Sequence record: PX393110.1
From: a phage
DNA length: 64,000 bases
Reading direction: 5' to 3' (one strand)
The notes beneath the pieces were generated by a model, which had not been told where the DNA came from, ran no database searches, and was given only the letters and a program-made list of their open reading frames with translations. Below are positions 46,185 to 46,818 of the stretch, piece after piece. A program made the position numbers and the translations under genes. Positions within the stretch are counted from its first letter, which is position 1. Every line of letters begins with the position of its first letter.

Positions 46185-46818
46185 AGTTACCTCTATGTTA
46201 TTTATTTTAAACTGGATAGGGACCTAATAGAGTAAATTAGTAAATAAATACTTATTAGTTACCTCTTACCTATGCTAAGGGAAGCGTACTCGAGGAGTAC
46301 AGAGGCTTAGCGAAAGAGCGGAGTAACACCTTTATCCCAATTAGTCAAAGTAGAGAGCGAAGGAGTCGCGCCCGCTTGAGGCGGCGCGACCTCCGCTTCA
46401 CCAATCCTACCGGATGAGCGCCTGCGACCACCCGAGCCTACCCCTGCATCACTCTCTAAAGCCACTTCGGGCTTTACCTCGTTCTGCTACGCGATACGCA
46501 GGCGATAGCTACACTAAGTCCCCTGGAGATGGCTAGTAAGCATCCGCTACCAGTCATATCCAACCTAACATTGGCGAAGCCAGGGACTAGGCACTCCGCG
46601 CCAATAAGCTACATTAGGATTTATGTCCGTATTCGAAGATAGGCCGATCGGTGAGACTATGCATTCATCTCTGCTCAACCAGGAAGCGCCGATTAGGGTA
46701 AATACCCAAACTACCTTCTTAATGTCACTCCTCCCAGACCGCTTCGGGACTTAGCTTAAGTCATATCCGAATAATCTGGCATCTACGACGGACCGTAGTG
46801 TATGGAGCGTACTGCAAT
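46185..46818. other. ORF-free, hairpin-rich segment (candidate structured ncRNA or regulatory region)
   Basis: no ORF of 60 aa or more in any frame; perfect hairpin GTCGCGCC...GGCGCGAC; several C(UUCG)G-type tetraloop contexts. Confidence 0.25.

Follow-up and report, generated by a model that had tools for sequence, protein, structure and literature searches.

Locus and relatives

The stretch of phage DNA analysed here (record PX393110.1), called the window below, is 64,000 nucleotides (nt) long, and our subject is a segment at 46185-46818 that the original prediction, made from the letters alone, had proposed as a stable, structured non-coding RNA (ncRNA). All features of the locus lie on the minus strand. 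In transcription order they are transfer RNA (tRNA) genes for tRNA-Arg and tRNA-Met, a 120-nt spacer, a copy of a recurring motif termed class-1, ~620 nt free of open reading frames (ORFs), and an ORF of 263 amino acids (aa) (Table 1). The ORF-free stretch extends past 46818 to 46978, up to tRNA-Met. GC content is 0.56-0.58 in the element and ~0.44 around it. We conclude that the segment is very probably a functional non-coding element of some kind; that it is the gene for a large ncRNA acting as a free RNA we rate at about even chances.

Table 1. Features of the locus, in transcription order, with predicted substructures placed within the conserved body (SD, Shine-Dalgarno sequence; bp, base pairs)
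Feature	Coordinates	Strand	Basis or remark
tRNA-Arg(UCU)	47200-47276	minus	ARAGORN and Rfam, 70.5 bits; first gene of the tRNA pair
tRNA-Met(CAU)	46979-47054	minus	ARAGORN and Rfam, 72 bits; directly upstream of the RNA element
Spacer from tRNA-Met to class-1 motif, 120 nt	46859-46978	minus	Fast-evolving; local control for the neutral rate
Class-1 promoter-like motif, copy CGCTCTTTTGATGAATCGAAAGGCTGTTAAATTGCAGTACG	46808-46858	minus	Repeat family and core search
Conserved body, candidate ncRNA, ~457 nt	46356-46812	minus	Conservation and alifold model
Predicted 5′ domain	46724-46812	minus	First bases GUACGCUCC pair with GGGAGGAGUGAC
Predicted three-way domain	46635-46718	minus	alifold
Hairpin, 9-nt loop GAAUGCAUA with self-complementary AUGCAU	46653-46671	minus	Helix 9 of alifold; invariant in five copies
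Predicted central domain	46399-46625	minus	Closed by 10-bp long-range helix, alifold
Hairpin AUUGGCGNGG...CYUCGYCAAU	46570-46605	minus	Sole helix with clean compensatory series (pairs 213:240, 217:236)
GC-clamp hairpin	46356-46397	minus	z = -3.3; holds perfect arms 46365-46372/46383-46390
Variable linker past GC clamp, rewritten in IME392	46312-46355	minus	Five-copy alignment, columns 466-500
Conserved 3′ hairpin GCUAAG...GUACUC-CUC-GAGUAC...CUUAGC	46274-46311	minus	z = -3.9; without U tract after it
AT-rich conserved leader with SD AGAGGUAAC of downstream gene	46185-46273	minus	4-8% divergence
263-aa gene, probable DXD (GT32-like) glycosyltransferase	45393-46184	minus	Remote homologues

The window is ~88-92% identical to Escherichia phages vB_EcoM_IME392 (IME392) and EP_H11, which belong to the RP13/YerA41/SP-15-like phages with hypermodified thymidine (2025 paper, PMC12686479). 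Among 50,697 phage records searched with blastn (word size 11), only these two matched the segment. Two further copies were recovered from Logan assemblies through a neighbouring DenV-like gene, one 98% identical (contig L005) and one IME392-like (contig L006), giving five known copies; contig L005 is mosaic, with some of its states window-like and others IME392-like. Seven further Logan members are listed in the cluster of the 263-aa protein. Scanning IMG/VR and the JGI metagenomes by DNA pattern, terminase and 263-aa protein revealed no related element, and blastn of the element against 5,426 E. coli genomes plus plasmids gave no match. The GTDB genomes yielded nothing except one chance 19-mer in a Cytophagales metagenome-assembled genome, not extending past 19 bases, and exact look-up of two window proteins, together with a search using the 123-aa neighbour, added no relatives.

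In IME392 and EP_H11, an additional tRNA-like piece (...TAGGGTTCGATTCCCTACGTGGCACCA) separates tRNA-Met from the RNA (minus strand; L001 ~4880-4960 and L002 ~4890-4970, respectively), for which ARAGORN and Rfam made no call. In the window, which is without it, the CCA end of tRNA-Met abuts the same downstream sequence, and this suggests recombination between tRNA 3′ ends.

Non-coding status

The absence of ORFs of at least 60 aa from 46185-46818, as originally described, holds: the longest with a start codon has 52 aa, also when the search extends to 46978. The longest stop-free runs (70, 61, 60 and 60 codons) are about what a rough estimate gives for random sequence. Among the five copies, 1-nt indels occur at several sites of the body and break the frame of every small ORF, so coding is ruled out; a 37-aa coding sequence (CDS) annotated within the element in EP_H11 is shifted by the same indels. 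Six-frame stop-free pieces of the element matched nothing in PHROGs or Pfam. The element is non-coding. A degraded CDS, which the original prediction had raised against itself, is likewise rejected: in the relatives the sequence is equally ORF-free and is interrupted by indels that shift the frame, and six-frame pieces match no protein family.

Conservation and selection

Divergence was measured in a three-phage alignment of the window, IME392 and EP_H11. Positions 46260-46808 differ by 4.4-5.1% in each of the three pairs. Fourfold-degenerate sites of six downstream genes differ by 17-48% (window versus IME392 or EP_H11) and 6-21% (IME392 versus EP_H11), and the spacer at 46859-46978 shows 18-27% divergence with many indels. 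The element changes ~5 times more slowly than silent sites of the neighbouring genes. Per 100 nt of alignment, columns identical in all three phages make up 91-96% of the core versus 67-89% in the genes at 44396-45993, one such interval aside, and the helicase gene is the only one to equal the core. Identity per 50-nt block is 96-100% in the conserved body versus ~88% for the whole locus. Substitutions are concentrated in a few spots, with invariant runs of 35-50 nt between them. The patch at 46312-46355, after the GC hairpin, is rewritten in IME392, which suggests that the conserved body would end at that hairpin. This comparison of sequences indicates that the element is under strong purifying selection.

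A functionless segment, such as a mobile-element remnant or degraded gene, could look conserved if it had been acquired or exchanged recently by recombination. Consistent with this are the mosaic state of contig L005, the absence of the element from outgroups (see below) and a GC content foreign to the genome; direct repeats of 9-12 nt (TTATTAGTT...) also flank a 699-nt span, although repeats of such lengths are expected by chance. However, divergence is 4-5% in all three pairs and several-fold higher in the flanks, so that a single recent transfer would have had to match the boundaries exactly. The substitutions moreover cluster in a few helices and loops and leave long invariant runs, and no protein remnant was found. 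We regard a hitch-hiking remnant as improbable, and less likely than an RNA gene.

Class-1 motif and transcribed strand

The leftward class-1 copy that was said to stand ahead of the segment is real; it occupies 46808-46858, and its core (AAAGGCTGTTA) is identical in all relatives. A core search found 19 copies on the minus strand and the repeat family lists 18, all upstream of minus-strand genes. The copies span positions 3646-50283 of the window (e.g. 48887-48937). The minus-strand consensus is CCGCYCTTTT-N6-7-YSRAAAGGCTGTTAAAnTGT, with an invariant AAAGGCUGUUA; upstream of the invariant part, a short hairpin shows covariation in its stem from copy to copy (CUUUUG/CGAAAG, CCUUUG/CAAAGG). Most copies have a GGAGG SD and a start codon within a few bases, with exceptions at 46820 (the copy ahead of the RNA), 48052 and 48234, and most copies other than the one ahead of the RNA lie 5-90 nt from their gene. 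The tRNA operon is preceded by three tandem copies (48040-48330). Acinetobacter phage Ab1-TPeters has a comparable motif (AAAAGCTGTTTAAAGT) at corresponding sites (L007, near 16840, 17580, 18262 and 19515). We infer that the class-1 motif is a phage promoter, in which TGnTAAAGT would resemble an extended -10, and that the RNA would start near 46809-46812.

Just past the last tandem copy, a hairpin CCGACUG...CAGUCGG followed by UUUUU (47991-48018, minus strand) resembles a terminator or attenuator; the terminator scan missed it because of its 9-nt loop.

The minimum free energy (MFE) of the same 563 nt is -202.7 kcal/mol for the minus strand versus -171.5 kcal/mol for the plus strand, and the minus strand folds better by 25-43 kcal/mol in all five copies. 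Within the hairpin at 46570-46605, one pair is G-C in the window and contig L005, G-U in IME392 and contig L006, and A-U in EP_H11, while a neighbouring pair alternates between G-U and G-C. Read on the plus strand, the G-U state would become a C-A mismatch, so the series fits the minus strand only. From motif direction, MFE and this pair series together, the RNA strand is the minus strand.

Predicted fold

For the 563-nt alignment, RNAalifold predicted 21 helices with 171 pairs in all; the resulting domains are listed in Table 1. The perfect GC hairpin noticed at the outset is present, with arms GTCGCGCC and GGCGCGAC, and forms part of a longer helix. The UUCG contexts fared less well. Both strings exist (gccacttcgggc at 46461-46472 and gaccgcttcgggac at 46737-46750), but neither is a canonical C(UUCG)G tetraloop: the 'cttcgg' strings read CGAAG on the minus strand, the one likely transcribed, and even on the plus strand the C-G closing geometry is missing. 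An alternative long-range pairing of CCUAGUCCCUGG with CCAGGGGACUUAG competes with the covarying hairpin at 46570-46605. The full 794 nt gave z = -2.3 (20 shuffles), and sub-domains gave z = -2.2 to -3.9, values that are inflated because the sub-domains were picked after seeing the fold. The AUGCAU loop is the only lead to homo-oligomeric, RNA-only assembly of the GOLLD and ROOL type, and a kissing-loop role for it is speculative, palindromic 6-mers being expected by chance at such a length. It is plausible, on this model, that the segment forms a defined structure.

The conserved feature could instead be the DNA itself: a site for packaging or protein binding, or an origin of replication whose transcript serves as primer or forms an R-loop. 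Precedents for such origins are ColE1, with an RNA II of ~555 nt, and T4 oriF and oriG, each a promoter with an unwinding element. An AT-rich tract does lie ~560 nt past the promoter-like motif, a length resembling that of ColE1 RNA II, and the phage encodes a family A DNA polymerase. But the region, which the original prediction had also likened to an origin, contains no iterons or tandem repeats, and there is no DnaA-box-like site in 43621-48703. Conservation is even over unique GC-rich sequence rather than confined to short boxes, and the folding strand asymmetry and the G-U intermediate point to RNA. The DNA polymerase of the relatives, going by the title of reference 5 in PMC12686479, reportedly starts without a primer. 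A DNA-level role therefore seems improbable to us, again less likely than an RNA gene.

Comparison with known RNAs

The Rfam/Infernal scan that had been suggested as a check returned no family for the segment. Rfam 15 gave no match at the gathering score, at E<=1 (2.5 kilobases, kb) or at E<=10 with lax filters (0.8 kb; cmscan of 46190-46980, both strands), nor at E<=1 on the IME392 copy. The families without a match in the segment include GOLLD, ROOL, group I and II introns, RNase P, tmRNA, 6S and every riboswitch. Two matches were at chance level: CC1840 (E = 2.9) and Acido-Lenti-1 (E = 1.8), the latter on the promoter-motif hairpin. RNA complementarity to the rest of the window, as a sign of antisense targets, was no better than chance.

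Two identities that had been suggested for the RNA can be set aside. Concerning tRNA-like elements, ARAGORN called only the two flanking tRNAs and none inside the segment, and 46185-46978 contained no tRNA-clan Rfam match at E<=10. Concerning an intron-derived fragment, Intron_gpI, Intron_gpII and group-II-D1D4 all failed to match, and there is no exon context, the element being bordered by a tRNA gene and by an intact ORF that has an SD of its own. Strings like the group I R and S elements are in the wrong order on both strands (by eye), and the domain-V-like shape of the GC hairpin goes with no GNRA loop and no model match.

Several large or stable RNAs share features with the element. T4 stable RNA species 1 and 2 (bands C and D) are non-tRNA RNAs of the tRNA cluster, co-transcribed with the tRNAs; at ~120-140 nt they are far smaller than the element. 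The ColE1 RNA II pre-primer is a structured untranslated transcript of ~550 nt from a dedicated promoter, but it belongs to a plasmid replicon, whereas the element is in a phage and has no RNA I or other Rfam match and no origin features.

Closer in kind is ROOL (RF03087), a large ornate ncRNA of phages and prophages, ~580-660 nt long and often found beside tRNA islands (PMC12286853). The element agrees with it in location and size, lying beside tRNA-Arg and tRNA-Met with a conserved body of ~460-540 nt. It differs in giving no covariance-model match even at E<=10, in coming from a lytic coliphage where known ROOL members are from Firmicutes and rumen samples, and in having almost no covariation, on which the ROOL fold extensively rests. 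GOLLD (RF01998) is also a phage RNA near tRNA genes, its expression goes up during lysis, and GOLLD env-38 lies just downstream of tRNA-Met, as the element does (PMC12286853). Unlike the element, which has neither a model match nor an embedded tRNA, GOLLD usually exceeds 800 nt, and its 3′ half is conserved. An abundant ncRNA of ~800 nt is produced by phage ICP1 (PMC7567579), and phage K has long ncRNAs near tRNA genes (PMC9241854). These large, abundant transcripts come, as the candidate RNA would, from ORF-free segments of lytic phage genomes, those of phage K adjoining tRNA genes. They were discovered by RNA-seq, with no conservation analysis reported, whereas the element was identified here from sequence and conservation; no sequence relationship to them is expected. 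Most likely the element belongs to a kind already familiar, the large phage RNA encoded next to tRNAs, without being a member of any described family.

Outgroups

The terminase of Ab1-TPeters is 59% identical to that of the window, and tRNA-Arg(UCU) followed by tRNA-Met(CAU) also occurs in Ab1-TPeters and YerA41. In YerA41 a CDS comes directly after the tRNA pair, with no RNA element. Searches with nhmmer and with a covariance model of the first 179 nt gave no significant match in Ab1-TPeters (best E = 0.15) or in the RP13 segment; for Ab1-TPeters the search took in the syntenic tRNA region with filters off. In the sequences compared, the tRNA pair is common to the group and the RNA was detected only in IME392-like coliphages.

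The Ab1-TPeters record (L007, PP763253.1) is annotated at 17400-20170 with hypothetical proteins of 30-60 aa on both strands, and its feature table has no tRNAs. We find in this interval tRNA-Arg (18399-18475), tRNA-Met (18862-18936) and ORF-poor, locally GC-richer sequence, so that most of the CDS calls there look spurious.

Downstream gene and the leader alternative

The 263-aa protein has no direct family match. A full HMMER scan yielded four remote homologues that share its invariant D99-x-D101; these in turn have sub-threshold matches to Gly_transf_sug (E = 4e-4) and Gb3_synth (E = 3e-3). The remote homologues (loci L009, L010 and L012) are in tight operons with topoisomerase II, ThyX, SDR, methyltransferase, ATP-grasp and PIG-L/deacetylase genes, which are probably thymidine-hypermodification clusters; gaps in these operons are at most ~115 nt, and none has a long leader. 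The AlphaFold model of the protein has a predicted local distance difference test score (pLDDT) of 38. On the strength of the homologues, the protein is probably a DXD glycosyltransferase of a DNA-modification pathway, not a partner of the RNA.

The RNA and the glycosyltransferase gene are adjacent in every relative and probably share one transcript. The main rival to a free RNA is accordingly a structured cis-acting 5′ leader of ~620 nt on the glycosyltransferase messenger RNA (mRNA), which would control timing, stability or translation, for example by processing sites, sequestration of the ribosome-binding site, or ligand or protein binding, and would have no role in trans. The sole class-1 motif able to drive the 263-aa gene is the one upstream of the RNA, the AT-rich junction and its SD are conserved, and an SD-like copy (AAGAGGUAACUAAUAAG) precedes the real one (AGAGGUAACUAUG). 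Yet ~620 nt is exceptional against the 5-90 nt of most other class-1 copies, the remote homologues of the gene do without a long leader, and no riboswitch or leader family matched even at E<=10. A uniformly conserved 460 nt is also far beyond what known cis-regulators need, and the variable linker past the GC clamp suggests that the conserved body stops before the mRNA part. These latter points lean against a leader, none of them decisively, and we hold the leader to be rather unlikely.

Evidence that weighs against a free, folded RNA

Several results count against an RNA gene as proposed here. No sigma-70-like promoter or terminator was detected between the RNA and the glycosyltransferase gene, so the RNA as drawn is also the 5′ leader of that gene. 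The class-1 motif, having a covarying hairpin, could work at the RNA level and not as a promoter; the segment would then merely be co-transcribed with the tRNAs, and our main conclusion would be unchanged. With only five close copies and no outgroup homologue, an old conserved function cannot be claimed.

The fold is the other point of difficulty. Hairpins are present, as the original prediction had it, but their richness is only marginally above chance: the 563-nt core has z = -1.56, with 5 of 100 dinucleotide shuffles folding as well, and high GC accounts for most hairpins. In this the fold is unlike the sequence conservation, which is clearly beyond chance. The suggested covariation analysis, run on five sequences that are 92-100% identical, did produce the one clean compensatory series described above, but just 3 of the 171 predicted pairs have substitutions in both partners, and a covariation score as high as the observed one arises in 16 of 500 shuffles. 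Where one partner of a predicted pair has changed, pairing is by our count broken about as frequently as it is kept, which is the chance result for transitions. Of the stable ncRNA originally proposed, the non-coding status, the position behind a leftward motif and the purifying selection have stood, and the defined fold has found weak support.

Proposed RNA

The best reading of these results is a lineage-specific large ncRNA that is GOLLD/ROOL-like in setting yet a member of neither family. It would comprise a conserved body of ~460 nt, up to ~540 nt with the 3′ hairpin, and the data searched place it solely in IME392-like E. coli phages, which form a small clade within the RP13/YerA41 group, where thymidine is hypermodified. 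The ncRNA would be transcribed on the minus strand, with the class-1 copy at 46808-46858 as its own putative promoter; transcripts of the tRNA-Arg/tRNA-Met operon, which has three further motif copies upstream, probably also read through into it. It would thus be the last member of a phage stable-RNA module. In the predicted multi-domain fold, the 5′ end would pair back and so close a first domain, a long-range helix would close the central domain, and a very stable GC hairpin would stand on the 3′ side. The RNA would be released from a longer transcript that runs on into the glycosyltransferase gene, and would most likely act as an independent RNA, whether scaffold, decoy or self-assembling particle, as proposed for GOLLD and ROOL. 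We infer its transcription, processing, fold and action in trans, and any function that it has, from the features described. More tentatively, and with more doubt than belief, we suggest that it could establish a new class of large ornate RNAs in phages, the first in a lytic E. coli phage and, moreover, in one with hypermodified DNA, made in bulk with the tRNAs and serving in RNA-only assembly or as a decoy, like the nanocage-forming ROOL and GOLLD RNAs.

Other elements in the window

The spacer between the two tRNAs (47055-47199, minus strand) has z = -2.76 and a perfect 12-bp inverted repeat (47098-47109/47157-47168), and is ~91% conserved in the relatives; it may act as a processing element or yield a small structured RNA. 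A zinc-ribbon ORF of 67 aa at 47254-47457 (minus strand) matches PHROG 6060, 'anti-termination protein Q-like' (E = 2e-18), and shares 23 nt with the 5′ end of tRNA-Arg. A 67-residue gene is at the matching place in contig L005, and tblastn found no counterpart of the ORF in IME392 or EP_H11. Two small ORFs flank a long near-perfect hairpin (GACCUCUUAGUU...AAGCUAAGAGGUC, 47474-47538, minus strand) that is also conserved in IME392 (L001 5679-5742); Rfam gave it only a chance-level match to a microRNA precursor (E ~0.15). The 180-aa ORF at 48269-48811 has a match in PHROG 624; among its homologues, many contain PF03013, a pyrimidine-dimer DNA glycosylase family (T4 DenV-like).

A second family of ~66-nt repeats (GCCCCACCCAAAAGAACGGGCTTTAGGAC...TCGTTTTATTTTT, plus strand) occurs at 2889-2954, 7999-8064, 11468-11533, 11847-11912 and 34264-34329, intergenic among leftward genes, and may be a second class of transcription signal. 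DnaA-box-like 9-mers (TTATCCACA, <=1 mismatch) number 28 in the whole window versus 15.4 expected, a count that 0 of 100 shuffles reach, and TTATCCAGA alone occurs nine times; none of these 9-mers is within the interval around the element given above.

Implications

The small 'hypothetical proteins' called in this stretch, such as the 37-aa CDS in EP_H11, are probably spurious, which is a caution for annotators. GOLLD and ROOL occur mostly in organisms that are hard to handle, and a counterpart in a plaque-forming E. coli phage would be open to direct experiment. For the RP13/YerA41-like phages more broadly, the tRNA-Arg/tRNA-Met module would be a site where new RNA genes arise.

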